A DNA stretch of 64,000 nt, taken from the NCBI GenBank assembly GCA_964542785.1, contig CAZIUK010000001.1, positions 197,115 through 261,114 of the forward strand, given 5' to 3'. Shown here piece after piece: positions 3,384-39,726 of the stretch (the first letter of the stretch is position 1; each line of letters opens with the position of its first letter). Below the pieces are notes generated by a model. It made no database searches and had not been told where the DNA came from. It saw only the letters and a program-made list of their open reading frames with translations. Both the position numbers and the translations under genes were made by a program. This stretch comes from an uncultured Planctomycetales bacterium (GTDB lineage: Bacteria > Omnitrophota > Gorgyraeia > Gygaellales > Profunditerraquicolaceae).

Positions 3384-4544
3384 ATGATGGAAGAGCAATT
3401 AGCTATAATTAAGCGCGGTGCAGTTGATATTATTTCTGAAGAAGAGTTGCGCAAGAAGCTTAAAGAAAGCATTAAAACCAAAAGGCCGCTTAAAGTAAAA
3501 GCAGGCTTTGACCCCACTGCTCCTGACTTACATTTAGGGCATACTGTTCTTTTACGTAAGCTCCGTCAATTCCAAGATTTAGGCCATGAGGTCTATTTTT
3601 TAATCGGAGATTTTACCGGAATGATTGGCGACCCTACTGGCCGCTCTGAGATAAGAAAGCAACTCACCCGACAAGAAGTTGCTCGCAATGCCTTAACTTA
3701 TAAAAAACAGGTTGCAAAGATTCTAAATTTACGCAAGTTAAAAATAGTCTTTAACAGCAGATGGTTTAGCCGTTTTTCAGGCACAGATATCTTAAAATTA
3801 ACTACTCACTCCTCAATCTCTCAGATTTTAGCCCGCGATGATTTTAAAAAACGCTATACCTTAGGAGAGAATATCTCTATGTTGGAGTTTATGTATCCTT
3901 TGCTGCAAGGTTATGATTCGGTTGTCTTAAAGGCGGATATTGAAATTGGCGGGACTGATCAGATATTCAACCTTCTTGTTGGACGCGATATGCAAAAGGA
4001 CTTTAACCAACCTCAGCAGGTAGTTTTGACTATGCCGCTTTTAGAAGGTACCGATGGTACCCAAAAGATGAGCAAATCCTATTGTAACTATATCGGTATT
4101 AACGAACCGGCAAAAGAGATATTTGGTAAGGTTATGTCTATCTCAGATAACCTGATGCTTAAGTATTACGAACTGCTTACCGATGAGGATTTGGATAAAA
4201 TTAAAGGGATGCATCCGCGCGAGGCCAAAGTTAACCTTGCTAAAATTATCATTACCCAGTATCATTCTAGCGAAGCAGCGCAAAAAGAGGCGGATGAGTT
4301 TACGCGCGTTTTTTCTTTAAAAGAAATCCCGCAGGATATTCCAACATTTAAGGCAGACGCTACAAAAAATATAATAACAATACTTACGGAAAGTAAGCTT
4401 GCCTTAAGCGGAAATGAAGCGCGCCGTTTAGTTAAGCAGGGGGCTGTAAGTTTTAATAACATAAAAGTAGAGAATGAGGATTTTATCCCTAAGGAATCAG
4501 GCGTATTAAAAGTCGGCTCCCGCCGCTTCCTCAAAATCCTCTAG
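3384..4544 (+). CDS. tyrS: tyrosine--tRNA ligase
   Basis: HLGH (HIGH) and KMSKS class-I motifs; C-terminal S4-like domain. Confidence 0.93.
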
Positions 4545-4576
4545 GGGACGCTCCCCAAGGTACCACTCTCCAAAGG
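4544..4576. repeat. solo MITE terminal repeat (left-end type)
   Basis: GGGGACGCTCCCCAAGGTACCACTCTCCAAAGG, identical to the left TIR of the full copies; ends 8 nt before the next ATG. Confidence 0.6.
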
Positions 4577-4584
4577 ATTTTAGC

Positions 4585-4875
4585 ATGTTTTGGACCATAA
4601 TTGGCTCAACAGCAGCAACTCTAACCATGCTTTCTTTTATCCCGCAGATAGTTCGCTCCTATAAAAGCAAGCATGTTAAAGATATCAGCCCGGTTATGCT
4701 CTTTCAGCTCTCTTTAGGTGTCTCTTTATGGATAGCCTACGGCATACACCGCAAAGACCCTATAATTATCATCGCAAACTCCACAACCCTGCTTACGCTC
4801 TTAATCCTCATCTCAATGTATTTTCAGTATGGGGGACGCTCCCCAAGGAGCCACTCTCCAAAGGATTTTGAGTAA
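4585..4875 (+). CDS. SemiSWEET (PQ-loop) sugar transporter; last ~14 codons encoded by MITE copy C
   Basis: 96 aa, 3 TM; the PQ motif (LSFIPQIVRSYKSKHVKDIS) and YGIHRKDPIIIIAN match bacterial SemiSWEETs closely; C-terminus GGRSPRSHSPKDFE is translated from the MITE TIR. Confidence 0.8.
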   Translation: MFWTIIGSTAATLTMLSFIPQIVRSYKSKHVKDISPVMLFQLSLGVSLWIAYGIHRKDPIIIIANSTTLLTLLILISMYFQYGGRSPRSHSPKDFE

Positions 4876-4943
4876 AATCGTATAAAAAAATGCAAAAAAT
4901 CGGTCATTTTCGAAGAAGAGTGGTACCTCGGAGAGCGTCCCCC
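4832..4943. mobile_element. MITE-like element, copy C
   Basis: GGGGACGCTCCCCAAGGAGCCACTCTCCAAAGG ... GAAGAGTGGTACCTCGGAGAGCGTCCCCC. Confidence 0.7.
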
Positions 4944-5711
4944 AGGAGCAGGTTTATTCTTGCTGAATCTGACGGGCTTGTCCTTGAAACTATTCAGACC
5001 TATAGCGCTAACCCTCCCCGCAGAGGCCAGCCTCCAATAGAAACAAAAGGCATTGCCTCCAAACAAGAGTTACGTCTTCTTAAACTCAAAGGCACTTGGC
5101 GCGCCAACCCCTACAACGAGCTTGTATTTGAAGCCTCCGGCCGCAAAGGGAAGCCTGAAAAATTTACCTTCAAAGGCGCTTGGAAGTTAAATAAAAACCA
5201 ACATATTGAATACAAGACTGAAAATAACCGCGATACTCTAACCTTCAAAGGCCATTGGAAAATCCTCTCAGATAAAAAGCTCGTCTATATTTTAGAGGGG
5301 AGCTCAAAGTCAAAATTTGAGTTTAAGGCCCAATTTGAATCTGCCTCAATGCACCCTAAAAAAGGCGCAATCCGTTATCGTATCGGCATTGGAGCGCGCA
5401 GGCGCAGTAGAATCTCTCCGCATAAACTTTTAATACTCTACGGCGAATGGAAATTCAGCCGCAACTTAGGCCTTCTCTTTAATATAGATTACGGGTACAA
5501 CAGAATACAAGCAATATCCCTTGGCGCAGTAGTAACCTTCAGCCCCAACAAAATCGAACTCGCCTTAAGAAATGAATTTGGCAAGCCAATAGGAATTACT
5601 CTTACCTTAACTCGCAAGCTCTTCAAATCCCTTAATGCAAAAGCCTATCTAAGGCTTACCCACCGCCGCCAAGAAAAAGCAATTGAATCCGGCATCACCA
5701 TCCCCTTTTAG
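4890..5711 (+). CDS. hypothetical protein, beta-rich with C-terminal Phe (possible outer-membrane beta-barrel remnant); start uncertain (ATG lies inside the MITE)
   Basis: Only long ORF here; alternating hydrophobic pattern and terminal ...GITIPF; no signal peptide; first ATG is inside MITE copy C; C-rich codon usage unlike neighbours. Confidence 0.4.
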   Translation: MQKIGHFRRRVVPRRASPRSRFILAESDGLVLETIQTYSANPPRRGQPPIETKGIASKQELRLLKLKGTWRANPYNELVFEASGRKGKPEKFTFKGAWKLNKNQHIEYKTENNRDTLTFKGHWKILSDKKLVYILEGSSKSKFEFKAQFESASMHPKKGAIRYRIGIGARRRSRISPHKLLILYGEWKFSRNLGLLFNIDYGYNRIQAISLGAVVTFSPNKIELALRNEFGKPIGITLTLTRKLFKSLNAKAYLRLTHRRQEKAIESGITIPF

Positions 5712-6076: not shown

Positions 6077-6187
6077 GGGGACGCTCCCCAAGGTACCATG
6101 CTTCGGAGGTTTTTGCCCTAAAACCGCGTAATTTTTAATAAAAACAGTTGATTTTGGAGGGAGAGTGGCACCTCGGAGAGCGTCCCC
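6077..6187. mobile_element. MITE-like element, copy E
   Basis: GGGGACGCTCCCCAAGGTACCATGCTTCGGAGG ... AAAAACAGTTGATTTTGGAGGGAGAGTGGCACCTCGGAGAGCGTCCCC; 111 bp. Confidence 0.75.
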
Positions 6188-6212
6188 AAGGACTGAAGGA
6201 TACATAATTAAC

Positions 6213-6240
6213 TTGACAAATCATATTTGTATTGTATAAT
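6213..6240 (+). promoter_or_regulatory. sigma70-like promoter TTGACA-N16-TATAAT, -10 box ends 6 nt before the ATG (leaderless or near-leaderless)
   Basis: TTGACA at 6213-6218, TATAAT at 6235-6240, ATG at 6247. Confidence 0.5.
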
Positions 6241-6246
6241 TTAAGT

Positions 6247-7425
6247 ATGAAATACTTCAGCAGGAATATAGAAGGCGCGCTTAAGCAGGCAGTGAAGCAA
6301 TTCCGCGTTTTAGTTCTAACCGGGATGCGCCAGACAGGAAAATCCACGCTTCTTTGGCACCTTTTTAAAAAAACGCACCGTTATGTTTCTTTGGATAATC
6401 CCCGCGATTTAAAACTTGCCCAGGAAGACCCTGAGTTATTTTTTGATGAATACAGAGAGCCTTTGATAATAGATGAAATCCAGTATGCCCCGCAGCTTTT
6501 AGCGTATATTAAAATAAAAGTAGATAAATCCGCAAAAAGAGGCCAGTTTATTCTTACTGGTTCTCAACAGTTTACGATGACTTATAATCTGCAAGAGACT
6601 TTAGCGGGCAGAGCGGCGATCTTTAATCTTTTTCCTATGGCTATTACTGAGGCAAAAATCGCTACGCAGAATTATGTTTTTCGCGTCATCAATGGCTCAT
6701 ATCCGGAGTTGATTGTAAGGCGAAGCCATGACCCGCAGCGCTGGTTCGGGTCTTATGTGGCTACATATATTGAAAAGGATATCCAGCCTTTCTACCGGCT
6801 GGAGAAGGCGGCTTATTTTCGCAACCTTCTTTTTCTTTTAGCTGCCCGTTCATCTCAAGCATTAAATTACCAGTCTCTTTCTAATGATTTAGGCGTCTCA
6901 ATTCAAGCAGTAAAATTTTGGATTAATATTCTTGAAATATCGCAGGTTATATACTTGCTTAGGCCGTATCATAGCAATTTAGGAAGCCGTATTGTAAAAT
7001 CCCCAAAAGTCTATTTTACCGATGCCGGATTAGTGAATTATTTAATAGGCAATCAATCAAAAACCGCTTTGGTGCGCGGCGCGCAGGCAGGGGCTATCTT
7101 TGAAAATTTTGTAGTTCAGGAGTTATTAAAACATTATCATAACCTCGGGTTAACCCCGCCTCTTTACTATTACCGGACAAATAACGGGCTGGAAATAGAT
7201 ATAATTATTGAAGAAAGAGCAGGAGTAATCAGGCCTTGTGAAATTAAATTAACTAAAACGCCGAATTCAGGAATGGTTAATTCAATAGAGCGGTTTTGCA
7301 ATTTAAATAAAAGTAAGAAATTATCCATATTGGACGGTTGTGTTATATCGCTTGTTGATAAGTCTTTTCCTCTTACTAAAACTGTCAGGGCGTATAATTT
7401 AAAAGAGTTTCTGTCGGTTATTTAA
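6247..7425 (+). CDS. AAA+ ATPase with DUF4143 domain
   Basis: Walker A GMRQTGKST, Walker B LIIDEIQ; typical AAA_14/DUF4143 architecture. The ORF track starts at TTG 6232; ATG 6247 preferred. Confidence 0.8.
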   Translation: MKYFSRNIEGALKQAVKQFRVLVLTGMRQTGKSTLLWHLFKKTHRYVSLDNPRDLKLAQEDPELFFDEYREPLIIDEIQYAPQLLAYIKIKVDKSAKRGQFILTGSQQFTMTYNLQETLAGRAAIFNLFPMAITEAKIATQNYVFRVINGSYPELIVRRSHDPQRWFGSYVATYIEKDIQPFYRLEKAAYFRNLLFLLAARSSQALNYQSLSNDLGVSIQAVKFWINILEISQVIYLLRPYHSNLGSRIVKSPKVYFTDAGLVNYLIGNQSKTALVRGAQAGAIFENFVVQELLKHYHNLGLTPPLYYYRTNNGLEIDIIIEERAGVIRPCEIKLTKTPNSGMVNSIERFCNLNKSKKLSILDGCVISLVDKSFPLTKTVRAYNLKEFLSVI

Positions 7426-7436
7426 ATACGTCCCCT

Positions 7437-7547
7437 GGGGGACGCTCCCCAAGGTACCATGCTTCGGAGGTTTTGCCCTAAAACCGCGTAATTTTTAATA
7501 AAAACAGCTGATTTTGGAGGGAGAGTGGCACCTCGGAGAGCGTCCCC
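7437..7547. mobile_element. MITE-like element, copy F (near-identical to copy E)
   Basis: Differs from copy E by about 2 indels/substitutions; preceded at 7428-7435 by a CGTCCCC fragment of another right end. Confidence 0.75.
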
Positions 7548-7599
7548 AAGGTGGGGACTGTCCCTAAATTTAAGATAGTTATCCAACTTCCTTTAACTA

Positions 7600-24658: not shown

Positions 24659-24852
24659 AGATATATAATCTTTCTGGTTGTTAACGTTTGAATTTTAAGT
24701 CTGCTGATAGTAGTTTTATTTAGAAATGATTTGTCGGGAAAGACAGCTAAGAGGTGGGGGCCGTGGGGAGAGGGGCATAAGGTGATTGAAGGAAGTAAGT
24801 TAGAAGATGTAAGTGTGGACCGAGTAATGGAGGCTATTTCAGGGGGATAAGT

Positions 24853-25628
24853 ATGACATACGCAGTTATATTAGCAGGCGGGGTAGGGAGCAGGTTTTGG
24901 CCATTTTCGCGGGAGCTTGAGCCAAAGCAGTTTATGAAGATAGTAGGCGAAGAGAGCCTCTTGCAATCTACTATTAAGCGCGTAGAGGGAGTAGTTCTTC
25001 AGAAGAATATCTTTATAGTTACAAATAGTATCTACTTTTATGAGGTTTTAAATCAGATAAAAGGATTTAAGATTCCTGAGCAGAATATAATCTTAGAGCC
25101 GGAAGGAAAAAATACAGCCCCGGCTGTTGGGTTGTGCGCTCGTTTGATACTTAAAAAAGACAAAGATGCGGTTTTACTGGTTTTGCCTGCAGACCACTAT
25201 ATTAAAGATAATCTTAAATTCAGGCAGGTTATTAATAAGGCGGTTGAATGCGCGCGTAAGGATTTATTAAACGTAAAGAGCGTGTTACACATTTAACAGA
25301 AAGAAGGCCTTGGGGGTCTTTTACAGTCCTGCAGGCAGGATTGGGTTTTAAGATAAAGTTAATTGAGATTAGCCCGGGCAAGCGCTTAAGCTTGCAGAGG
25401 CATCAAAAGAGAGCAGAGCATTGGGTGGTTGTCTCCGGGGTAGCTAAGGTTATAAGTGGGAATAAGGTTAAGCTAGTGCGCAGCAATGAGAGTATCTATA
25501 TACCAAAGGGAATTAAACATAGGCTTGAAAATAAAGGAAGGGTTCCGTTAAAGATAGTTGAGGTTCAGACCGGCTCTTATCTTGAGGAAGATGATATAGA
25601 GCGGTTTGATGATGATTTTAGGCGGTAA
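24853..25628 (+). pseudogene. manC: mannose-1-phosphate guanylyltransferase gene with central ~200-codon deletion
   Basis: N-term AVILAGGVGSRFWPFSRELEPKQF (24853-25296) and the C-terminal cupin IEISPGKRLSLQRHQKRAEHWVVVSG...VQTGSYLEEDDIERF (25341-25628) are both ManC-like but are separated by a stop; about 220 aa of the middle are missing. Confidence 0.75.
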
Positions 25629-28196: not shown

Positions 28197-28718
28197 ATGA
28201 AAAAAGTTAAAAAACTGATTATTGGCAGTGCAGGGAAAAAGCATTTAGACGCGGTTACTCTTGATATTGAAGAAGCGCACAATCCTGATGTAGTTCATAA
28301 TTTAATGAATGCGCCGTATCCGTTTGAAGATAATGCTTTTGATGAAATTGTAGCTCACCATGTTTTAGAGCACATGGATGACATTTCTTGCGTTATGAGC
28401 GAGCTTCATCGGACATGTTCACCTCAGGGTAAAATATTTATTGAAGTGCCTCATCATACTTCGTGCTATGCCCACAATCCTTTCCATAAGATTTATTTTA
28501 GTTCTTTTTCTTTTGATGGGTTTATAGAAAACAATCAAACTTGGATTGTCGGAAAGAAATATCGCTGCTTAAAAAAAGAAGTAACTTTTCATAAGTATTA
28601 CCGTATGTTATTTTTGCATAAATTGTTTAACAGGTATCCGTTAATGTATGAAAGGTTTTTCTGTTATATATTTCCTGCTGAACATTTTAAGATTTGCTTA
28701 CAGCCTTTGAAAAAATGA
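28197..28718 (+). CDS. class I SAM-dependent methyltransferase (Methyltransf_11-like)
   Basis: VAHHVLEHMDD motif. Confidence 0.6.
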   Translation: MKKVKKLIIGSAGKKHLDAVTLDIEEAHNPDVVHNLMNAPYPFEDNAFDEIVAHHVLEHMDDISCVMSELHRTCSPQGKIFIEVPHHTSCYAHNPFHKIYFSSFSFDGFIENNQTWIVGKKYRCLKKEVTFHKYYRMLFLHKLFNRYPLMYERFFCYIFPAEHFKICLQPLKK

Positions 28719-28989: not shown

Positions 28990-29790
28990 TTGATGAATAA
29001 GATAAAGTTATCAGTAGTGGTTATAACAAAGAATGAGGAGGCGCGTATTAGAGCGTGTCTTGAGTCTGTTAAATGGGCAGATGAAATTATAGTAGTTGAT
29101 GATGAGAGTACGGATAAGACAGTAGAGGTTGTTAAGGGGTTTGGGGCTAAGGTTTTTGTAAGGATGATGGATGTTGAAGGAACTCATAGGAATTGGGCGT
29201 ATGCGCAGGCAAAGAATGAGTGGGTGTTAAGTTTAGATTCGGATGAGCAGGTTACAGAGGAGCTAAGAGAAGAGATTGGTAGGGTATTAGCCAACAAGCC
29301 GAGGAAGTTACTGTGCATCCACGCGCATTTTTAGATGGAACCTGCGGCCATTTAAAGTCAGATATTATTCATTATTCCTATCGGAGTTTTGAAGATTTTT
29401 TAGCTAAGCTTAACCGCCAGACTACTTGGGAGGCGCAAAAGTGGTATAATGCGAATAAACCAATGACATTAGGCCGCTTTTTATGGCGGACTTATGACCG
29501 CTTTATGCGTTCTTATTTTGGTAAAAAAGGATACAAGATGGGATTTATGGGTTTTGTGATTGCTTATTTTGCCGCGTTGTATCAATTTGTAAGCTACTTG
29601 AAATACCGCGAAATAATCCTTAATGGCGGACTTATGACCGCTTTATGCGTTCTTATTTTGGTAAAAAAGGATACAAGATGGGATTTATGGGTTTTGTGAT
29701 TGCTTATTTTGCCGCGTTGTATCAATTTGTAAGCTACTTGAAATACCGCGAAATAATCCTTAACAGGGACACCCAATCTGCTAAAGCTGC
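28990..29790 (+). pseudogene. waaE/kdtX-like GT2 LPS-core glycosyltransferase paralog, frameshifted, internally deleted and carrying a tandem duplication
   Basis: About 80% identical to the intact copy at 31021; frame breaks after ...LANKPRK; about 45 codons missing; same 3' end CTTAACAGGGACACCCAATCTGCTAAAG. Confidence 0.75.
29484..29763 (+). repeat. tandem direct duplication, 2 x 140 bp
   Basis: TGGCGGACTTATGACCGCTTTATGCG...GAAATAATCCTTAA repeated exactly; the period is not a multiple of 3. Confidence 0.85.
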
Positions 29791-29876
29791 GGGTGTCCCC
29801 AAATAGAAAGGAACGGGGACAGCCGTCCGATTGGCAAGTTGGGTGTCCCTAATATGAGGGTTGTGTTTTGGTCTTG

Positions 29877-29987
29877 GGGACATCCTCCAAGGTGCCAGGC
29901 TCCTTGTAAAAAAGGGGAATTTTGAAGAAAAATCCTTCAAAAACAGCCAAAAATCGTTGGAGAGTGGATACTTGGAGAGCGTCCCCC
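29877..29987. mobile_element. MITE-like element, copy G
   Basis: GGGGACATCCTCCAAGGTGCCAGGCTCC ... AAAAACAGCCAAAAATCGTTGGAGAGTGGATACTTGGAGAGCGTCCCCC; ends 7 nt before ATG 29995. Confidence 0.7.
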
Positions 29988-29994
29988 AGGTTTT

Positions 29995-31020
29995 ATGAAG
30001 AAAATAGAAGATAAAAAGATTAAAAAGATTTTAATAATTGGGCATCGTAATATCGGTGATGCCTGTTGCGACCTTGTTGTGGTCGGGCCGCTGCGCCGTA
30101 AGTTTAAGAACGCGGAGATTGTTTTCTTAACTTCTGCGGTTTCACAAGATATAGTTGAGGGATATAAGGGGTTAGACAGGGTTATTGTCTTTGACAAATA
30201 TGGCGTAGATAAAGGTATCCGGAGGCGTTTGCGCCTGTTATTGTTATTGAGAGGTGAGCGTTTTGACCTTGTGGTGGCACTATCTTCCACCTGGATGTAT
30301 AAATATGTCGGAGGCACATATCAATGGAGCGTTAGAAAGTATCTTGGGTGTTTGCCGCAAGATAAAAAAATGCATATCGCTGATATATATCTTGAATTCC
30401 TGCGCTCCTTTGGCGTGGAAACAGAAAGGGAACACTGGGATTTTAATGTGGAAGGGGAAGATAATTTTTGCGATGAGTTTTTAAGAAAAGCTGGCGTAAA
30501 CAATGGGGACAGAATAGCCGGGATTTTACCCTATAGCGGTTGGCTTTTAAAGGACTGGCCGGTTGAAAGATGGAACGAGCTGGCTAATTTATTAAACAGT
30601 AAGTATAATATTAAAGTTATTGCTTTTGGCAGGGTTGCCGATGATATTAAAGGGAAAGAGAAATTAATACAACTGTCACCTTTGATTATATCCGCGGTTA
30701 ATAAGACCACTTTAAAGCAGGCACTATCTTTAATTAAGCGCTGTAATCTTTTTATAGGGGTAGATTCCAGCCTTCTGCATTTAGCAAGCTGTGTGGGGGT
30801 GGAAACAATCGGTTTATTCGGGGCAACTTCAAAAGAATATATTTACCCGTATTTTCATTATTCTAATGTAATTACCCCTGCGCAAAAGCGCTATTGCATG
30901 CCTTGTTATCCCGGGTTAAATCCTTGTCCATGTATGAAGAATAAGCTCGTCCGCAGCCCTTGTATGGAAGATATTTCTGTGGAAAGTGTAATGCAATTAG
31001 TAAAACAAAGGAGTATGTAA
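29995..31020 (+). CDS. ADP-heptose:LPS heptosyltransferase (GT9)
   Basis: KILIIGHRNIGDACC, GVDSSLLHLASCVG. Confidence 0.85.
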   Translation: MKKIEDKKIKKILIIGHRNIGDACCDLVVVGPLRRKFKNAEIVFLTSAVSQDIVEGYKGLDRVIVFDKYGVDKGIRRRLRLLLLLRGERFDLVVALSSTWMYKYVGGTYQWSVRKYLGCLPQDKKMHIADIYLEFLRSFGVETEREHWDFNVEGEDNFCDEFLRKAGVNNGDRIAGILPYSGWLLKDWPVERWNELANLLNSKYNIKVIAFGRVADDIKGKEKLIQLSPLIISAVNKTTLKQALSLIKRCNLFIGVDSSLLHLASCVGVETIGLFGATSKEYIYPYFHYSNVITPAQKRYCMPCYPGLNPCPCMKNKLVRSPCMEDISVESVMQLVKQRSM

Positions 31021-31788
31021 ATGGCTAATTTATCGGTAGTAGTTTTAACAAAGAATGAAGAGGCATGTATTGCAGAGTGTCTTGAGTCGGTGAAGTGGGC
31101 GGATGAAATAATCGTAGTAGATGATGAGAGTACTGATAAAACTTTAGAGATTGTTAAGCAATTTAACGCGAAGGTTTTTGTAAGGAAGATGGATGTTGAA
31201 GGAACTCATAGGAATTGGGCGTATGCGCAGGCGCGTAATCCTTGGGTTTTAAGTTTAGACGCGGATGAGTCTGTAACACCTGAGTTAAAGACAGAGATTG
31301 AACAAGCAATGAAGTCTGAGGAGTTTGTGGCGTTTAGTATTCCGTTACGTAATTATATTAGTAATTATTGGGTAAGGTATGGGGGGTGGTATCCTGCTTC
31401 TAAGGTACGGTTATTTAGGAGAGATAAGTTTAGGTATGAAGAAGTTGAGGTGCACCCTAGGGCTTTTATTGAAGGGAAGTGTGGGCATTTAAAATCGGAT
31501 ATAATTCATAAAGGATACCCTGATTTAGAGCACTTTCTTAATAGCGTTAATCGTCAGTCCACTTTGGAGGCAAAAAAGTGGATTAATACAGGGCGTAAGA
31601 TGAGCTTGGGGCATATAATTTGGAGGGCAGTAGATCGTTTCTTCAGGCGTTACCTGCGCAAGAAGGCCTATAAAGACGGGATGTACGGGTTTATAATCGC
31701 ATTTTTTGATACTTTATATCAAATATTAAGTTACGTAAAATACAAAGAAATGCTTAACAGGGACACCCAATCTGCTAAAGATATATGA
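31021..31788 (+). CDS. waaE: LPS core biosynthesis glycosyltransferase WaaE/KdtX-like (GT2)
   Basis: LSVVVLTKNEE...DEIIVVDDESTDKT...SLDADE matches KdtX/WaaE; 255 aa. Confidence 0.8.
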   Translation: MANLSVVVLTKNEEACIAECLESVKWADEIIVVDDESTDKTLEIVKQFNAKVFVRKMDVEGTHRNWAYAQARNPWVLSLDADESVTPELKTEIEQAMKSEEFVAFSIPLRNYISNYWVRYGGWYPASKVRLFRRDKFRYEEVEVHPRAFIEGKCGHLKSDIIHKGYPDLEHFLNSVNRQSTLEAKKWINTGRKMSLGHIIWRAVDRFFRRYLRKKAYKDGMYGFIIAFFDTLYQILSYVKYKEMLNRDTQSAKDI

Positions 31789-32348
31789 GGGTTGCGTTTT
31801 TGGATAGAGACGGGGTTATAAATAAATATCCGGGAGATAAGGCTTATGTAACATCTCTGCGGAAGTTTAAATTTTTACCCGGGGCAAAGAAGGCGATAGC
31901 GCTGTTAAGCAGGGGAGGGTATAAGATATTTGTTGCCTCTAATCAGGCAGGGGTTGGCAGGGGCATATATAGCCAAAAGACTTTAGACAAAATAACCTCT
32001 TTTATGCTTTTAGAGGTTAAAAAAGCAGGCGGGCATATTGATAAGGTTTATTACTGCACCCACCATAAGAAAGCAGGTTGCTCTTGCCGTAAGCCAAGGC
32101 CGGGGATGCTTAAGAAAGCTAAGCGCGAGTTTAAGATTAACCTTAAAAACGCTTATTTTATCGGCGATACAATCCGCGATGTGCTTGCCGCTAAAAACGC
32201 CGGGTGTAAGTCTATTCTTGTCTTCTCAGGGAAAGAGAAATTAAGGAATAAACTTAAGTGGGAGGTTGCCCCTGATTTTACCTTTAAGGACCTCTATAGC
32301 GCGGCAAAACACCTCTTAAAAGTTAAAAAAACTTTAATTAAATCTTGA
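31785..32348 (+). CDS. gmhB: D-glycero-D-manno-heptose 1,7-bisphosphate phosphatase
   Basis: FLDRDGVIN HAD motif; zinc motif C-x-H...C-x-C (CTHHKKAGCSCRKP). Confidence 0.9.
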   Translation: MRVAFLDRDGVINKYPGDKAYVTSLRKFKFLPGAKKAIALLSRGGYKIFVASNQAGVGRGIYSQKTLDKITSFMLLEVKKAGGHIDKVYYCTHHKKAGCSCRKPRPGMLKKAKREFKINLKNAYFIGDTIRDVLAAKNAGCKSILVFSGKEKLRNKLKWEVAPDFTFKDLYSAAKHLLKVKKTLIKS

Positions 32349-32406
32349 CAGGGGCTAGAATATCAGGTATAGTTAATTAACATAAATGTTAACTAACTAT
32401 GCTTAG

Positions 32407-33000
32407 ATGAATTACCTTAAAATCAGTAGATTAAGCAAGTTTTACTTTTCTTACCGCGATATCGCCAAGGCCCGCTGTATATCCTTGCCCTCAGCGCGGG
32501 TTGCCTTAAGCCGCCTTGTAAAAAGCGGAAGCATTATCCGCCTTAAAAGGGGCTTGTATGTTTTAGCCCAAAGGTTAAATTACTCTTCTCTTGAAGAGAA
32601 GTTTTTATTAGCCAACCTTATTCAGCCTGCTTCTTATATTTCTTTTATGACTGCTTTGAGTTTTTACGAAGTTACAACGCAACTTCAACGCAACTTTATA
32701 GAATCAGCAGGTTACCTAAGGACTAAGGAGGTAGAGGCAGGAGGGAATCTTTTTAACTATGTTAAGATAAAAAAAGATATTTACTTTGGGTTTATAAAGA
32801 CAAGCGGGTATTTTATCGCTACCCCGGAAAAGGCGTTCTTAGACGCTTTTTATCTAAAATCTTTAAAAAGGTATAACTTTGACCTTGCTTCAATTAATTT
32901 TAAGCGGCTTAATAAGGATAAACTTTTTCAGTTATCCCGCAAATACCCTTTACTAGCCCGCAAACTCTTATTAAAATATGGATACATTAAGAAGGCATGA
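32407..33000 (+). CDS. AbiEi-like antitoxin / transcriptional regulator (type IV TA)
   Basis: N-terminal wHTH-like (...ALSRLVKSGSIIRLKRGLYVL); overlaps the downstream AbiEii gene by 23 nt. Confidence 0.5.
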   Translation: MNYLKISRLSKFYFSYRDIAKARCISLPSARVALSRLVKSGSIIRLKRGLYVLAQRLNYSSLEEKFLLANLIQPASYISFMTALSFYEVTTQLQRNFIESAGYLRTKEVEAGGNLFNYVKIKKDIYFGFIKTSGYFIATPEKAFLDAFYLKSLKRYNFDLASINFKRLNKDKLFQLSRKYPLLARKLLLKYGYIKKA

Positions 33001-33625
33001 GATATTTGAGATAGAGGTTTTAAAGAAGCTTAAAGATAGGCAGCTTCTCTTGCCGCTCGTCTTTGTCGGCGGGACAATGCTTCGGCTCTGTTATGACCTT
33101 AATAGGTATTCAACGGATCTTGATTTTTGGTTTTTAAAAAAAGTAGAGCAAAGAGGGTATTTTAAAAAATTAAAAGATGCCTTAAGCGGCTATCAGATAA
33201 CTGATTCTAAATTAAAATTCAATACTATTCTCTTGGAGGTTCGGAGTAAAAATTATCCTAAACGGCTTAAGATAGAGATAAGAAGGCAGGTTAAAGATTT
33301 AGACCTTCAGGAGAGGATTGCCTTTTCTAAGTTTACTACTCTTCAGGTTGCGTTAAAGGCGCTTACTTTGCAGGGGGCAATGAAAGCTAAGATTGAGGCA
33401 GGGTTAGATAGAAAAGATATCAGGGATTTTTATGATATGGAGTTTTTGTGCCGTCAGGGAGCAGAGGTTAAGGCAGGAGAGAAGGAGTTAGAGAAGTTAA
33501 AGGAAATTATCTTAAGTTTTAAGGCGCAAGATTACAAGGTTGCCTTAGGCTCACTCCTTGAAGAGGAAGAACGAAAGTATTACGTAAAGAATGGGTTTGA
33601 GTATCTATTAAGCAGGCTATCCTAG
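32978..33625 (+). CDS. AbiEii-family nucleotidyltransferase toxin (DUF1814)
   Basis: LVFVGGTMLRLCYDLNRYSTDLDFW matches the KGGTAL..RFSEDLDF NTase motif. Confidence 0.75.
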   Translation: MDTLRRHEIFEIEVLKKLKDRQLLLPLVFVGGTMLRLCYDLNRYSTDLDFWFLKKVEQRGYFKKLKDALSGYQITDSKLKFNTILLEVRSKNYPKRLKIEIRRQVKDLDLQERIAFSKFTTLQVALKALTLQGAMKAKIEAGLDRKDIRDFYDMEFLCRQGAEVKAGEKELEKLKEIILSFKAQDYKVALGSLLEEEERKYYVKNGFEYLLSRLS

Positions 33626-33735
33626 GGGACGCTCCCCAAGGTACCACTCCGCTTTCAAAAATGCCTGTTTTTGATAAAAATTATTCAATTTTTGCCCAAA
33701 AGTCAATGGAGAGTGGCTCCTCAGGGAGCGTCCCC
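33625..33735. mobile_element. MITE-like element, copy H
   Basis: GGGGACGCTCCCCAAGGTACCACTCC ... GTCAATGGAGAGTGGCTCCTCAGGGAGCGTCCCC; starts at the AbiEii stop codon. Confidence 0.75.
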
Positions 33736-33754
33736 AAGGTTAAAGGATAGGCGT

Positions 33755-34846
33755 ATGAGGGTATTGATTGTTTATGCTTCAGCAGGCGCGGGGCACAGGC
33801 GCGCAGCAGAGGCAGTTTATGATTATTTAAAGGCTAATCGTCCGGATTTATCTTTAAAGATTATTGACGCCTTAGATAGGACGAATGCTCTGTTTAGGTT
33901 TGATTATACCGTAGGGTATTCTTTTCTTGTTAGGTATGCGGTTGGGCTTTGGAGGTTTGCTTTTTGGTTGACAGAGTTTAAGGCCTTTCGTTTTTTAAGC
34001 GCGCCGATTGCTACATTTGTAAATAATATCAACTCTTTAAGCTTTATCCGCTACCTTATCCGCAAAAACCCCGACTATATTATCTCTACTCATTTTCTCT
34101 CAGCGGATATTGCCGCGTTATTAAAGCGCAAGAAAAAGATTACCTCAAAGTTGATAACGATTATTACTGACTTTGGCGTTCATCCTTATTGGATTGCCCA
34201 AGGGACTGATTTTTATGTTGTGGCGTCTGATTTTACTAGAAGGCGGCTTTTAAGCGAGGGGGTTAGGGAAGAAAGGATAAAAGTATTCGGCCTTCCTTTT
34301 CATCAGAAGTTTTTGAAAGACTTTGACCGCAAGGCGCTGGCAGAGAAAATCGGGATTAATCCGGATAAGTTTACGGTTATGCTTATGACCGGAAGTTTTG
34401 GCACTGGGCCGTTAAAGAAGATTGCCCGGATGCTTTCTTTTAAGGCGCAGGTGTTGGTGGTTTGCGCGTCTAATGAGAAGTTGCGCAAGGGGTTTTTAAG
34501 GGAGAGATTGCCAAATGTGAAGGCCTTTGGGTATATAAATAATACTGAAGAGCTTATGGCGGTTTCTGATTGCATTGTGACAAAGGCAGGGGGCTCTACT
34601 ATAGCTGAGATTATTAATATGGGGTTAGTCCCGATTTTTATCTCTATTATCCCGGGACAGGAGTCTGGAAATGTTGAAGCAATGCAGGATATGGGGGTTG
34701 GTTTTGTCCCGAAAAACCTTAAAGAGTTAAGGGATATAATTATAGTTTTGAAGAATAACCCTGCCAAACTTGAAGAGATGCAAGAGAGGATAGAGGGGGT
34801 AAAAAAACCTTTTGTCTGCCAGGAGATATCTAATGTTATACGTTAA
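33755..34846 (+). CDS. MGDG-synthase/UgtP-like glycosyltransferase (GT28)
   Basis: MRVLIVYASAGAGHRRAAEAV N-term; C-terminal GT28 motif TKAGGSTIAE. The ORF track start 33671 lies inside the MITE; ATG 33755 preferred. Confidence 0.75.
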   Translation: MRVLIVYASAGAGHRRAAEAVYDYLKANRPDLSLKIIDALDRTNALFRFDYTVGYSFLVRYAVGLWRFAFWLTEFKAFRFLSAPIATFVNNINSLSFIRYLIRKNPDYIISTHFLSADIAALLKRKKKITSKLITIITDFGVHPYWIAQGTDFYVVASDFTRRRLLSEGVREERIKVFGLPFHQKFLKDFDRKALAEKIGINPDKFTVMLMTGSFGTGPLKKIARMLSFKAQVLVVCASNEKLRKGFLRERLPNVKAFGYINNTEELMAVSDCIVTKAGGSTIAEIINMGLVPIFISIIPGQESGNVEAMQDMGVGFVPKNLKELRDIIIVLKNNPAKLEEMQERIEGVKKPFVCQEISNVIR

Positions 34847-36644
34847 GGTTGTTTTAGGGTTGCCGTTGGATTGTTCTTTTGATTATTTTGTGCCGAAAGA
34901 ATTAGAAAAGGAGGTTTCTGTTGGCGCAAGGGTCTGGGTTAATTTCCGTAATAAAAAGTCAGTCGGGTATATAGTTGGATTAGCAAAGAGGACAAAGATA
35001 AAGAAGGTTAAAGAGGTTTTAGGGTTGATTGATAAGAGTCCTTTGTTAAGCAAGAATTTGCTTAAGCTCGCTCGTAATTTAGCTGATTATTACTGCTCTT
35101 CTTACGGCGAAGCGATAGAGGCAATGTTGCCTCAACCATTCCGTCAAGGTAAGCCGGGGGACGCTCTCCAAGGTGCCAGGCTTCCTTTGTCGGAGAGTGG
35201 TTCCTTAGGGAGCGTCCCCCAGGTATTAGAGGGGAGAGAGCCGAGTAAGAGGTGGGAGTTTTATATAAAAGAGTTAAAGAAGGCAGAAAGCGAAGGCAAC
35301 TCCGCAATAGTACTATTCAGCGATATGCAGACACTCTTAAAAGCAAAAGACATTTTTGAGAAAGCCCAAATTAAAGATATCTTCATTTTTCACCGCAAAG
35401 AGAAAGATGAGTCTTTGATTTGGCAGGAGGCGCGCCTTAAACAAAGGTGTGTTGTTTTAGGGACTCGCTCGGCTATCTTTGCTCCGCTTAATAACTTAAA
35501 ATTAATTATCATAGATCGTGAGGAAGATTCAGTTTATAAACAGGAGCAATCTCCTCATTATCATGCCCGCCAAATAGCCTTTATGCGCGCAAAAATAGAG
35601 GATGCCCAAGTTATTTTAGAAAGCACAAGCCCTTCTGTGGAAAGTTTTTTTCTTACACAAGAAAAGAAAGCTATCTATCAAATCTTAAACAGATTAAAGC
35701 CGTATCCACAGATATCTATAGTAGATACCAAGCGTATGCCCTATGCTGAGCGAAGAAGTAAGGCGATATTTCCAAGGGTACTAACAGATGCTATATTTTC
35801 TACTCTCTCCCAAGAGGGTAAAGTGCTTGTTTTTATAAACCGCAGGGGTTTTGCAACTTTTTCTGCTTGCCATAACTGTGGTAAGGCATTAAAATGCCCG
35901 GCGTGCAATACAAGCTTAGTCTATCACTATGACCAGAGTTTGTTAAAATGTCGTCATTGCGCTTTTAAAATGGCGCTTCCTGATATCTGTCCAAACTGTA
36001 ATGCCGGCTATATTAAGTATTCTGGTTTAGGGACGGATAAAGTTGAAAGCGAGCTTGCGCGCATATTCCCTCAAGCGCGTATTGGAGATGATATTATTGC
36101 CTCAGCAAGCGCAATACTAAAGGAAGAGGATAAGGATTTTGACTTAATCTGTGTCTTAAATATTGACAATGCCTTAAACCGCGTTGATTTTATGGCTGCA
36201 GAGAAGGTTTTTTATTTATTATCAGGGTTAGTTGCCTTAACATCTAAAAAAATAATTATCTTAACAACTTACCCCCGGCACCATATTTTTAAGTCTTTAG
36301 AAAAAAAAGACCCGCAGATTTTTTACGCGCAGGAGTTAAAGTTTAGGAAACAACTTAAATACCCTCCTTTTAGAAGTATGGCACTCTTAAAGCTTCGTGG
36401 AAGGGCTGAAGATAAGGTTAAAAAAGCAGCAGAAGGTCTATTTGAAAAGTTAAAAGAAGGTAGCAGAGGCATAGAAGCTCTCTCTGTAAATCCGGGGGAG
36501 CCCCCAAAACTGCGCAGTAATTATTACTGGCAGATATTATTTACCGCCTCAAGCCCGCTAACCTTAAGCAAGTTCTTAAAAAATAATTTAAAGGATGTAA
36601 AGTATTCGGGTATAATAGTTACGATTGATATAAACCCAATCTAG
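34833..36644 (+). CDS. priA: primosomal protein N' (PriA) homolog with degenerate helicase motifs and an in-frame MITE insertion
   Basis: N-term ...LPLDCSFDYFVP (3' DNA-binding domain), Cys-rich zinc region CHNCGKALKCPACN...CRHCAF...CPNCN; Walker A reads GREPSKRW and DEEH reads DREE. Confidence 0.8.
   Translation: MLYVKVVLGLPLDCSFDYFVPKELEKEVSVGARVWVNFRNKKSVGYIVGLAKRTKIKKVKEVLGLIDKSPLLSKNLLKLARNLADYYCSSYGEAIEAMLPQPFRQGKPGDALQGARLPLSESGSLGSVPQVLEGREPSKRWEFYIKELKKAESEGNSAIVLFSDMQTLLKAKDIFEKAQIKDIFIFHRKEKDESLIWQEARLKQRCVVLGTRSAIFAPLNNLKLIIIDREEDSVYKQEQSPHYHARQIAFMRAKIEDAQVILESTSPSVESFFLTQEKKAIYQILNRLKPYPQISIVDTKRMPYAERRSKAIFPRVLTDAIFSTLSQEGKVLVFINRRGFATFSACHNCGKALKCPACNTSLVYHYDQSLLKCRHCAFKMALPDICPNCNAGYIKYSGLGTDKVESELARIFPQARIGDDIIASASAILKEEDKDFDLICVLNIDNALNRVDFMAAEKVFYLLSGLVALTSKKIIILTTYPRHHIFKSLEKKDPQIFYAQELKFRKQLKYPPFRSMALLKLRGRAEDKVKKAAEGLFEKLKEGSRGIEALSVNPGEPPKLRSNYYWQILFTASSPLTLSKFLKNNLKDVKYSGIIVTIDINPI
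35157..35219. mobile_element. 63-bp mini-MITE (two TIRs, no core) inserted in-frame in priA
   Basis: GGGGACGCTCTCCAAGGTGCCAGGCTTCC-TTTGTC-GGAGAGTGGTTCCTTAGGGAGCGTCCCC; translated as GDALQGARLPLSESGSLGSVP. Confidence 0.7.
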
Positions 36645-37703: not shown

Positions 37704-38729
37704 ATGCCAGAACTTAGAAAAGATCCGGTTATTGGTAGGTGGGTTATAATCGCTACAGAAAGGGCGCGTAGGCCTGATTATTTTAACGGCGAGAGTCATG
37801 AGCCTGTAGTAGAGAAGTCTTGCCCATTTTGTGAAGGGTTAGAAGAGCAGACCCCTAAAGAGATTTATGCCTTAAGGCCGCGGGGGACTGCGCCTAATAG
37901 CCCTGGGTGGGATTTAAGGGTTGTACCGAGCATAGCCCCTTTTTTAAAGGTAGAAGGAGAGTTAGACCGCCAAGGAAAAGGCCTTTATGACATAATGAGC
38001 GGGATTGGCGCTCATGAGATAATTATTGAAACTAACAAGCATATTGCTAATATAGCTGATTTAACCTTAGATCAGATTACTAAGGTTTTAAAGTGCTATA
38101 CGGATAGGATTTTAGATTTAGAGAAGGATGAGCGTTTTAAATATGTTTTGGCTTTTAAGAATTATGGCGGGGCTGCAGGTGGAAGCAAGATAAGGCATGC
38201 GCGTTCGCAGTTGATAGCTACTCCTGTAAACCCTAAGAGGGTAAAAGAAGAACTTGCTGGAGCAAGACGTTACTTTGATCACCATGAAAGGTGTGTTTTT
38301 TGCGACCTTATCAGGCAGGAGCTTGAACAGAAGTCGCGTTTAATTTTAGATCTAGACGGGTTTGTTGCGGTTAGCCCATTTGCCGCAAGGTTTCCTTTTG
38401 AGACTTGGATACTTCCAAAAAAACACAGCCCTGATTTTACTTCTCAGGATAGTAAGTCCTTAGAAAATCTTGCTAAAATGATGAAGATCGTACTTTTAAA
38501 ATTAAAGAAGGGTTTAAATGACCCGTCTTATAATTATATTATTCATACTGCTCCTTTTAGGCGTAAAAAAGTCGGCTATTGGAAGACGATTGAGCATGAT
38601 TATCATTGGCATATTGAGATTATGCCACGCCTTACACGCATCGCAGGTTTTGAATGGGGGACAGGGTTTTACATTTGCCCGATAGCTCCAGAGGAAGCGG
38701 CTAAATTTTTAAGAGAGGTAGAAGTATAA
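37704..38729 (+). CDS. galactose-1-phosphate uridylyltransferase-like (GalT/HIT family) paralog 1, HPH motif changed to HAR
   Basis: DPVIGRWVII..RP, CPFCEG zinc motif; IRHARSQLIA where GalT has HPHGQ. Confidence 0.75.
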   Translation: MPELRKDPVIGRWVIIATERARRPDYFNGESHEPVVEKSCPFCEGLEEQTPKEIYALRPRGTAPNSPGWDLRVVPSIAPFLKVEGELDRQGKGLYDIMSGIGAHEIIIETNKHIANIADLTLDQITKVLKCYTDRILDLEKDERFKYVLAFKNYGGAAGGSKIRHARSQLIATPVNPKRVKEELAGARRYFDHHERCVFCDLIRQELEQKSRLILDLDGFVAVSPFAARFPFETWILPKKHSPDFTSQDSKSLENLAKMMKIVLLKLKKGLNDPSYNYIIHTAPFRRKKVGYWKTIEHDYHWHIEIMPRLTRIAGFEWGTGFYICPIAPEEAAKFLREVEV

Positions 38730-38730
38730 A

Positions 38731-39726
38731 ATGGGAGAGTTAAGGCGTGATCCTATTGTTGGCAGGTGGGTGATTGTAGATAAAAGTAATACCCCAGCCA
38801 TAAAAGATTTTCAATATGAGAAGAATACCTCTAAAGGTGGGGTATGCCCTTTTTGTTACGGTAATGAAGCTATGGTTCCTCCTGAAGTAGAGTGTTTTAG
38901 AGAACCTGGGACAAGCCCTAATACCTCAGGCTGGTATGTAAGGACTGTGCCGAATAGGTTTCCTGCTTTGCAGATAGAAGGAGATTTAGACAAAAGGCCG
39001 GTAGGGCTTTATGATATGTCTAATGGAGTTGGCGCCCATGAGATAATTATTGAAAGCCCTTATCATGCTAAAGATATTTCAGACCTATTGCCCCATGAAG
39101 TAGAAAATTATATAAGGATGTGCCGTAACCGCGCCTTTGATTTGGCTAAGGATAAGCGTTTTAAATACTTAATGTTTTTCAGGAATTTTGGGCATGGAGC
39201 AGGCGCTTCTTTAGAGCATCCGCATACACAGTTAATCGCTCTGCCTATGGTCCCAAAAAATGTGGCAGAGGAGATTATTGGAGCAAAGAGTTATTTTGAT
39301 TATAAGGAGCGTTGTATCTTCTGTGATATGATAAGGCAAGAGATGCAGGAGAAAGAGCGCATAATATTTGAGAATAAGTATTTTTTGTCCTTTTGCCCTT
39401 TTGTTTCACGTTTTCCTTTTGAGATTTGGATTATGCCTAAAAAGCACAACGCTTACCTTCGTTTTGTTTCAGATGAAGAGATAAAGCTCTTAGCTGAAAT
39501 TTTAAAAGATACGGTAAGCAGGGTAAAAAATATTTTTCCGGATATTTCTTATAATTATATACTTCATGTTGCACCCATTAACGGAGATGTTGATGTAGAG
39601 TATTATCATTGGCATATTGAGTTTATGCCTAAATTAACACAAGTTGCAGGTTTTGAATGGGGGACGGGGTTTTATATTAGCCCGATTACGCCTGAGCGAG
39701 CTGCAAAATATTTAAAAGGAGGGTAA
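38731..39726 (+). CDS. galT: galactose-1-phosphate uridylyltransferase-like paralog 2 (canonical HPH)
   Basis: [17 protein letters not shown]. Confidence 0.8.

Follow-up and report, generated by a model that had tools for sequence, protein, structure and literature searches.

A probable AbiE-family toxin-antitoxin cassette of the short-toxin clade, with its own promoter and a candidate operator, in a glycan locus of an uncultured Omnitrophota bacterium

The closest described systems are the AbiE pairs of Streptococcus agalactiae and Lactococcus lactis (COG5340-COG2253; PMC3985639), bicistronic units in which the antitoxin gene abiEi comes first and overlaps the toxin gene abiEii. AbiEi of S. 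agalactiae regulates itself negatively via inverted repeats in the promoter (PMC3985639). It also binds AbiEii and induces its auto-phosphorylation at T65, a position equivalent to S78 of MenT3 and T39 of MenT1; in the complex, a flexible AbiEi loop, D85-E86-I87, enters the active site of the toxin, and AbiE has been reclassified as Type VII (10.64898/2026.01.19.700257). The DUF1814 nucleotidyltransferase fold of the toxin is shared by the MenAT systems of Mycobacterium tuberculosis (MenT1, MenT3/TglT, MenT4; PMC7450476, PMC10435456, PMC11375011, PMC7205606). The MenT toxins modify the acceptor stem of tRNA (PMC7450476, PMC10435456), and auto-phosphorylation of a toxin induced by its antitoxin has been reported (PMC11375011; 10.64898/2026.01.19.700257). 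Here we describe a pair of this kind at positions 32407–33625 of a 64,000-nucleotide stretch, below called the window, from an uncultured bacterium of the Omnitrophota lineage (GCA_964542785.1, contig CAZIUK010000001.1). The pair almost certainly belongs to the AbiE family, and the two genes very probably form an intact toxin-antitoxin cassette (COG5340 / DUF1814) of the short-toxin clade. The pair conforms to the family in its motifs, toxin fold, gene order, overlap and promoter palindrome. The cassette consists of the following features.

32345–32373, plus strand: cassette promoter, with the −35 hexamer TTGACA at 32345–32350, a 17-nt spacer and the −10 hexamer TATAGT at 32368–32373
32367–32402, no strand: candidate AbiEi operator, a 36-bp palindrome, GTATAGTTAATTAACA-taaa-TGTTAACTAACTATGC
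32407–33000, plus strand: abiEi, antitoxin of 197 aa (PF13338, PADLOC, conservation among homologues)
32978–33000, plus strand: overlap of abiEi and abiEii, 23 nt, bicistronic and presumably translationally coupled
32978–33625, plus strand: abiEii, DUF1814 Pol-beta-type nucleotidyltransferase toxin of 215 aa (Pfam, PADLOC, alignment, model)

The sequence-only reading of this stretch had claimed an AbiEi/AbiEii pair and had proposed Pfam searches as the check. Both domains were recovered: PF13338 (AbiEi_4) matches the abiEi product with 37 bits (cut-off 25) at residues 8–54, where a winged helix-turn-helix N-terminus had been suggested for the overlapping upstream gene, and PF08843 (AbiEii) matches the abiEii product with 58.8 bits (cut-off 22.5) at residues 15–181. 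With both scores above the curated cut-offs, and with PADLOC profiles aligned over nearly the full length (PDLC02330 for AbiEii, E = 6.3e-87, residues 1–214; PDLC02241 for AbiEi, E = 2.3e-27, residues 1–180; the AbiEi profiles PDLC02272, PDLC02255 and PDLC02240 reach approximately residue 180 as well), the claim of the pair is borne out. The nucleotidyltransferase signature named for the toxin is also present, as G31-G32-T33-M-L35 and D47-L-D49-F50 in VFVGGTMLRLCYDLNRYSTDLDFWF. The label "Type IV" is that of Dy et al. 2014 (PMC3985639) and may no longer hold, given the case that the 2026 preprint makes for Type VII. The AbiE family is well known and public pipelines label both proteins already, so that the identification is correct but ordinary: the source collection names the toxin [quoted passage not shown] and the antitoxin "predicted transcriptional regulator of viral defense system".

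The pair shares with AbiE of S. agalactiae and L. lactis the order of the overlapping genes, an AbiEi composed of a winged helix and a C-terminal domain and of similar size (the matched PADLOC profiles have about 200 positions), AbiEii motifs I–IV, a Ser/Thr in the T65 register and inverted repeats in the promoter. It differs in several respects. S. agalactiae AbiEii, at about 33 kDa with a His tag, implies a considerably longer protein than the 215 aa of the toxin considered here, and its operator has the form IR1-N27-IR2, unlike the continuous 36-bp palindrome over the −10 hexamer, which also has a different sequence. Unlike these two systems, the pair falls under the cut-off of the NCBIfam AbiEi equivalog, and its host is uncultured and most similar to the Omnitrophota.

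The motifs of the toxin were defined (PMC3985639) as hG[G/S]-x(n)-DhD for I and II, with a family-specific arginine in II, KLxAaxxR for III and +DxxD for IV. We aligned AbiEii of the window with 17 homologues at 57–71% identity, and invariance is stated for these 18 sequences. Motif I, G31-G32, is invariant; motif II is R43-Y-S45-T-D47-L-D49, and in the whole segment F29-V-G31-G32 ... R43-Y-S-T-D47-L-D49 all named positions but V30 and T46 are invariant. Motif III is K138-I-E-A141-G-L-D-R145, with K138, A141 and R145 invariant, and motif IV is R149-D150-F-Y-D153, with R149, D150 and D153 invariant; E100 is invariant too. Each residue on which AbiEii toxicity depends according to mutagenesis (Dy et al. 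2014, PMC3985639) has an invariant counterpart. The gap from G32 to D47 is 14 residues, and hence the spacing is close to the long one of the AbiEii family (x = 15, versus 9–13 in other Pol-beta enzymes; PMC3985639).

In S. agalactiae AbiEii the register of motif II is R63-x-T65-x-D67-x-D69 (PMC3985639; 10.64898/2026.01.19.700257). The register of the phospho-acceptor, two residues before the first catalytic aspartate D47, is occupied here by the invariant S45, which in the model lies in the loop between helix 32–39 and strand 47–52. S78 of MenT3 has the matching register, and its S78A and D82A mutant structures are among the PDB matches of the toxin. S45 is therefore a candidate equivalent of T65 and S78, as judged from the sequence register and not from superposition.

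The AlphaFold2 model of AbiEii is of high quality, with a predicted local distance difference test score (pLDDT) of 90.7 and a predicted template modelling score (pTM) of 0.84. The closest solved structure, both by sequence and by fold, is JHP933 of Helicobacter pylori (4o8s / 4ok0): Foldseek against the PDB yields 3e-8 (template modelling score about 0.6, 22% identity), and the sequence profile 5e-8. The chains of JHP933 are likewise compact, 232 and 260 residues; its host belongs to a different phylum, and the likeness concerns the DUF1814 nucleotidyltransferase structure. Next in the Foldseek list are MenT3/TglT at 5e-6 and MenT1 at 6e-5, the MenAT matches as a group ranging from 5e-6 to 2e-4, and the AbiEii profile also matches MenT4 (6y56) across GGT..RFSTDLDF. 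The MenT toxins have the same RxS/TxDxD active-site register, including the phospho-acceptor of the S78 type, but the identity is 12–15%, and the MenT3 and MenT4 chains are about 290 residues long. Given the motifs, the fold matches and the profile matches, membership in the DUF1814 toxin family is secure. By its length the toxin stands at the short end of its clade, 215 aa versus the usual 216–226.

The antitoxin has 555 detected homologues, nearly all of exactly 197 aa. Conservation peaks in the block 83–100 (A83, L84, Y87, T90, T91, Q92, F97, E99, S100), and this best-conserved block is contained in residues 81–103, the one part of the chain without a reliable placement by AlphaFold2 (pLDDT below 50). 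By analogy with the loop of S. agalactiae AbiEi, we infer that the block is a candidate toxin-contact loop; the low pLDDT of the model at 81–103 would fit a loop that becomes ordered only upon binding of the toxin.

The promoter of the cassette, of the sigma-70 type, matches the consensus in 11 of 12 positions, as seen in a consensus scan, and its −35 hexamer contains the stop codon TGA (32346–32348) of the upstream gene gmhB. The operator palindrome, with the core TTAACA-N4-TGTTAA, has 14 of 16 complementary arm positions; an inverted-repeat search gave 15-nt arms with 93% complementarity. It covers the −10 hexamer and the expected transcription start. We aligned 73 homologous loci from several phyla, and the column identity is distributed as follows.

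−35 hexamer: 93%
−10 hexamer: 82%
left arm of the palindrome: 92%
right arm of the palindrome: 88%
DNA just 5' of the −35 hexamer: 35%

The palindrome arms stand at a fixed distance from the ATG across the 73 loci. In the aligned upstream regions of homologous pairs the similarity begins abruptly at the −35 hexamer, and at the 3' side it ends at the stop codon of the toxin; hence the unit is a cassette of about 1.28 kb, 32345–33625, with its own promoter. No intrinsic terminator was found 3' of abiEii, the terminator-like sites of the scan all lying inside the two coding sequences. The palindrome accompanies the cassette and lies on the cassette's promoter; this indicates autoregulation, and AbiEi, by analogy with S. 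agalactiae, presumably binds the palindrome at 32367–32402 and represses its own synthesis.

The characterised relatives suggest how such a system would work. Free AbiEii would use nucleoside triphosphates to add nucleotides to the 3' acceptor ends of tRNA, leading to arrest of translation and growth. The N-terminal winged helix of AbiEi would bind the palindrome as a dimer and repress the operon, while its C-terminal domain, probably via the block 83–100, would contact the active site of the toxin; this contact would induce auto-phosphorylation of S45 and turn the toxin off, in a manner resembling Type VII (Type IV in the older literature). If AbiEi were lost or its supply shut off, for example when a phage infects the cell or the locus is lost, the toxin would be set free in active form. 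We regard this autorepressed toxin-antitoxin mechanism as probable, and a real anti-phage role in the native host as a tentative suggestion that may well prove wrong.

A number of observations weigh against this interpretation. What is proposed on toxicity, rescue, DNA binding, phosphorylation and the tRNA target is by analogy with characterised relatives. AbiEi scores 19.9 bits with the NCBIfam equivalog NF047376 (TAA_AbiEi), for which the cut-off is 150, and none of the NCBIfam models matches AbiEii; as the former score is that far under the cut-off, the pair represents a divergent subfamily and not the equivalog of the NCBIfam seed group. The identity of AbiEii to its structural matches is just 12–22%, so its substrate and nucleotide preference may differ. 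No Shine-Dalgarno sequence is seen 5' of the start codon of either gene, and where S. agalactiae has two spaced repeats, IR1 and IR2, the operator here is one long palindrome. The AlphaFold2 model of AbiEi is mediocre overall (pLDDT 70.7, pTM 0.49), and with this mediocre model Foldseek produced no match under E = 0.1. The phmmer and profile searches of the PDB found no relative of AbiEi either, so that no link of its C-terminal domain to the solved AbiEi structure (PDB 6Y8Q) emerged from phmmer, profile or Foldseek. Finally, AbiE of S. agalactiae was ineffective in E. coli against 32 coliphages, and for that reason a defence role is not assured.

Contigs of seven metagenome samples or sequencing runs encode an identical toxin protein, and those long enough to show its neighbours have the same ones. 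The toxin clade comprises more than 2,200 matches, and all those with an organism name are Candidatus Omnitrophota. Relatives are present in at least 353 species-representative genomes, mostly from uncultured anaerobic phyla. Among the best 80 of these loci, to which the counts below refer, the labels of the metagenome-assembled genomes include the Omnitrophota, lineages of the Desulfobacterota (Desulfobacterales, Thermodesulfobacteriota) and of the Nitrospirota, as well as Planctomycetia, Elusimicrobia, Lentisphaeria, Calditrichota, KSB1 and others. The toxin gene overlaps at its start with a partner gene in 75 of the 80 loci; the partner has 197 aa in 41 and the overlap is 23 nt in 45, both being seen in the loci L008–L014.

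In the 80 loci the immediate neighbours vary widely: the 123 proteins fall into 153 Pfam families, no family occurring more than four times, and the cassette thus behaves as a portable unit. A general link of the clade to glycan or lipopolysaccharide (LPS) loci is rejected on the same counts, the context of GT9 and ManC genes being limited to a few close Omnitrophota relatives. Searches with tblastn gave no match in 72,556 plasmids or in 50,697 phage records, and no relative was confirmed among the IMG/VR viral contigs; in the window, no recombinase gene was recognised beside the cassette. The GC content of the cassette, 0.34–0.39, is slightly below that of the surrounding locus, 0.38–0.43, a difference too small for a compositional foreign island, which was rejected.

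The neighbourhood of the cassette in the window includes four further features.

31785–32348, plus strand: gmhB, D,D-heptose 1,7-bisphosphate phosphatase (NCBIfam NF006506), 5' flank of the cassette
33625–33739, no strand: palindromic repeat of about 115 nt, not part of the cassette
33755–34846, plus strand: glycosyltransferase similar to monogalactosyldiacylglycerol (MGDG) synthase and diglucosyl-diacylglycerol synthase, 3' flank of the cassette
24707–24860, plus strand: empty alternative site, composed of a 3' remnant of the GT9a gene and the beginning of a broken manC gene, with a short unrelated spacer between them (tblastn and junction alignment)

The score of GmhB with the equivalog NF006506, 179.7 bits, is just over the cut-off of 178. 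The MGDG-synthase-like product matches NCBIfam PRK13609 with E = 5e-51, under the curated cut-off, and the Pfam families MGDG_synth and Glyco_tran_28_C; its gene likely starts at ATG 33755, just after the repeat. The locus also contains two GT9 heptosyltransferase-family genes, GT2 genes, two DegT aminotransferase genes, a polysaccharide deacetylase gene and a Wzy_C gene of the O-antigen-ligase family. With such a content, the earlier description of the place as an LPS core locus is a fair one, and so is the position given for the pair, between gmhB, which ends at 32348, and the repeat copy.

We compared the window with two Omnitrophota metagenome-assembled genomes, L008 and L009 (GCA_028715785.1, GCA_026387335.1). 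In both the order is GT9a – AbiEi – AbiEii – ManC – GT9b – DegT – GT2 – gmhB – MGDG-synthase, with two extra small genes between ManC and GT9b in L009. There gmhB, whose product is 70% identical to that of the window, directly abuts the MGDG-synthase gene, and the cassette is situated instead between GT9 and ManC. In the window the latter site is empty: 42 codons of GT9a remain (24707–24832), ManC is broken by a frameshift and an internal deletion that removed residues ~143–342, and neither tblastn nor the junction alignment revealed a second AbiE copy or a remnant of one at this site. Some 7.5 kb further downstream is the cassette, with gmhB on one side and the MGDG-synthase-like gene on the other. 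It is thus a discrete portable unit of about 1.28 kb found at different sites in related genomes.

In a few close Omnitrophota, including the window, L008 and L009, the pair stands among the genes of GT9, GT2, ManC, GmhB and Wzy_C on the same strand. This arrangement would suit a pair domesticated for the biosynthesis of surface glycans, AbiEi controlling the transcription of the locus and the nucleotidyltransferase acting on a sugar or lipid. We consider this highly improbable: the glycan context is confined to those few relatives, the top neighbour families reaching just 4 of the 123 proteins each; the palindrome goes along with the cassette and lies on the cassette's promoter, a sign of autoregulation; all motifs of the toxin type are retained, including the phospho-acceptor position; and by its fold the protein belongs with the tRNA-modifying toxins and not with sugar nucleotidyltransferases.

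The AbiE proteins are 63–66% identical to those of L008 and L009, and the flanking housekeeping genes 64–81%. A divergence similar to or slightly above that of the flanks fits a long residence in the lineage with relocation inside the locus, although loss followed by re-acquisition of the cassette may be an alternative. The glycan locus shows three regions of decay, 24707–25625, 28197–28718 and 29005–29615, the last being a decayed GT2 duplicate of which an intact copy is present at 31021–31788. An apparent methyltransferase fragment was seen among the remnants. Tandem genes of the galactose-1-phosphate uridylyltransferase family, similar to galT, occupy 37704–39726 of the window, and another genome, L014, has a comparable tandem 5' of a related AbiE cassette.

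The same biochemistry could serve persistence alone, the pair being a pure addiction or stabilisation module or a selfish cassette, perhaps one that stabilises a variable glycan locus against deletion, which is compatible with a role in defence. The failure of S. agalactiae AbiE against the 32 phages speaks for this reading, as does the presence of the cassette, in one Omnitrophota lineage, in a decaying and rearranging glycan locus (the GT9a remnant, the broken ManC, the remnant of the GT2 duplicate), and the divergence from L008 and L009 suggests long residence and not a recent arrival on a defence island. However, AbiE of L. lactis confers abortive infection, related DUF1814 pairs affect infection by T7, and the heterogeneous neighbours of the clade show no general link to glycan loci. 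On balance, we hold addiction without defence to be possible but on the unlikely side.

The autorepressed toxin-antitoxin cassette, which we prefer, abuts a copy of the palindromic repeat, whose first G is the last base of the TAG stop codon of abiEii, a 1-nt overlap. The 32-nt arms of this copy, 33618–33649 and 33711–33742, are 81% complementary. At least five full copies are present in the 64 kb (4833–4946, 6078–6191, 7439–7551, ~29875–29990 and 33625–33739), plus partial ones; a 16-mer of the repeat core has 16 matches in the window versus 0.11 expected. The ends are conserved and inverted, GGGGACGCTCCCCAAGGTACCACTC ... GAGTGGCACCTCGGAGAGCGTCCCC, and the interior is variable. The RNA would fold into a very stable hairpin (−55.1 kcal/mol, z = −8.25), but nothing in the window, the repeat included, reaches the gathering threshold of Rfam.

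The repeat had been called a miniature inverted-repeat transposable element (MITE). The part of this name that stands is the general appearance, since the repeat is short, multi-copy and non-coding, with terminal inverted repeats. However, the flanks of the five full copies share no direct repeat in the alignment that could represent a target-site duplication, and no transposase with matching ends was recognised within the window; the open reading frame bracketed by two copies, 6232–7422, encodes an ATPase with the domains AAA_14 and DUF4143 and not a transposase. Because neither hallmark was seen in the window, a palindromic repeat similar to repetitive extragenic palindromic (REP) elements is equally possible. 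The repeat resembles MITEs and REP or bacterial interspersed mosaic elements (BIME) in being short, multi-copy and intergenic, with inverted ends and a variable interior; it differs from these elements in that no target-site duplication, no related transposase in the window and no Rfam match was seen, and in that one short copy lies within a reading frame.

Copies of the repeat bracket blocks of genes, for example the segment GT9-GT2-gmhB-AbiE at 29995–33625, and the decayed GT2 duplicate is located just upstream of the left-hand copy of this segment. Judging from these positions, recombination at the 115-nt repeats could explain the relocation of the cassette.

The surroundings also raise the question of whether the pair is an inactive relic with intact frames and lost function. 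Several pseudogenes and gene fragments lie nearby, the toxin is at the short end of its clade, and the last base of its stop codon is already part of the inserted repeat. Still, this is very unlikely, as both reading frames are of full length and keep every catalytic and structural residue that is invariant in the clade, the promoter and the operator are close to the consensus, and the identical protein recurs on the contigs of the seven samples or runs.

Other copies of the repeat touch coding regions. A half-copy, 4545–4580, and the full copy 4833–4946 flank an open reading frame for a PQ-loop protein of 96 aa (4585–4872); the half-copy starts right after the TAG stop of the tyrosyl-tRNA synthetase gene (4542–4544), with the same junction, CTAGGGGACGC, as at the abiEii stop. 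A short copy at about 35150–35223, with both ends conserved and the interior shortened, lies in frame inside the priA open reading frame (34812–36644) and encodes roughly GDALQGARLPLSESGSLGSVPQ. It is situated just ahead of the position at which we presume the Walker A motif of the PriA helicase to lie; the sequence there reads LEGREPSKRWEFY, without GxGKT. It is possible that priA has taken up a copy of the repeat in frame and that its ATP-binding motif is degenerate.

The claim that the AbiE pair is the only clear defence module of the window is not strictly right. The ATPase gene at 6232–7422 (plus strand, 397 aa) matches the PADLOC candidate system PDC-S01 with E = 1.1e-102, and AbiE is thus not the sole defence candidate. 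The two copies of the repeat that flank the ATPase gene, 6078–6191 and 7439–7551, are the most similar of all. AAA_14 and DUF4143, found in 4 and 3, respectively, of the 123 AbiE-neighbour proteins, are among the commonest neighbour domains in other genomes. The remaining PADLOC matches among the open reading frames of the window, to pVip and mad2, are weak and multi-member.

The whole window forms an unusually long co-directional gene array. Of approximately 73 non-overlapping open reading frames of at least 60 aa, all are on the plus strand except one of 68 aa at 29734–29940, and the GC skew is positive in nearly all intervals at 28–38 kb.

As AbiE and MenAT modules are widespread and increasingly well understood, the locus has little significance beyond its correct annotation. 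One may imagine a wider picture, in which the short-toxin clade, a 197-aa AbiEi with a JHP933-like AbiEii of about 215–225 aa, is a distinct uncharacterised subfamily, its promoter, operator and two genes travelling as one recombinase-less cassette of about 1.28 kb, which in one Omnitrophota lineage was retained in the heptose-glycan (LPS-core-like) locus and moved within it, possibly via the 115-nt repeats, serving there as an addiction module that stabilises a locus determining phage receptors or couples it to abortive infection; taken as a whole, we consider this quite improbable. What is gained is a defined operator and defined cassette boundaries for a large uncharacterised clade, and the reciprocal occupied and empty sites show that such cassettes relocate without a visible recombinase. 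The conservation of a Ser/Thr at the phospho-acceptor position in a clade so distant from the characterised systems gives sequence-level support to the suggestion that this residue, and hence Type VII control by auto-phosphorylation, may be general in the family.

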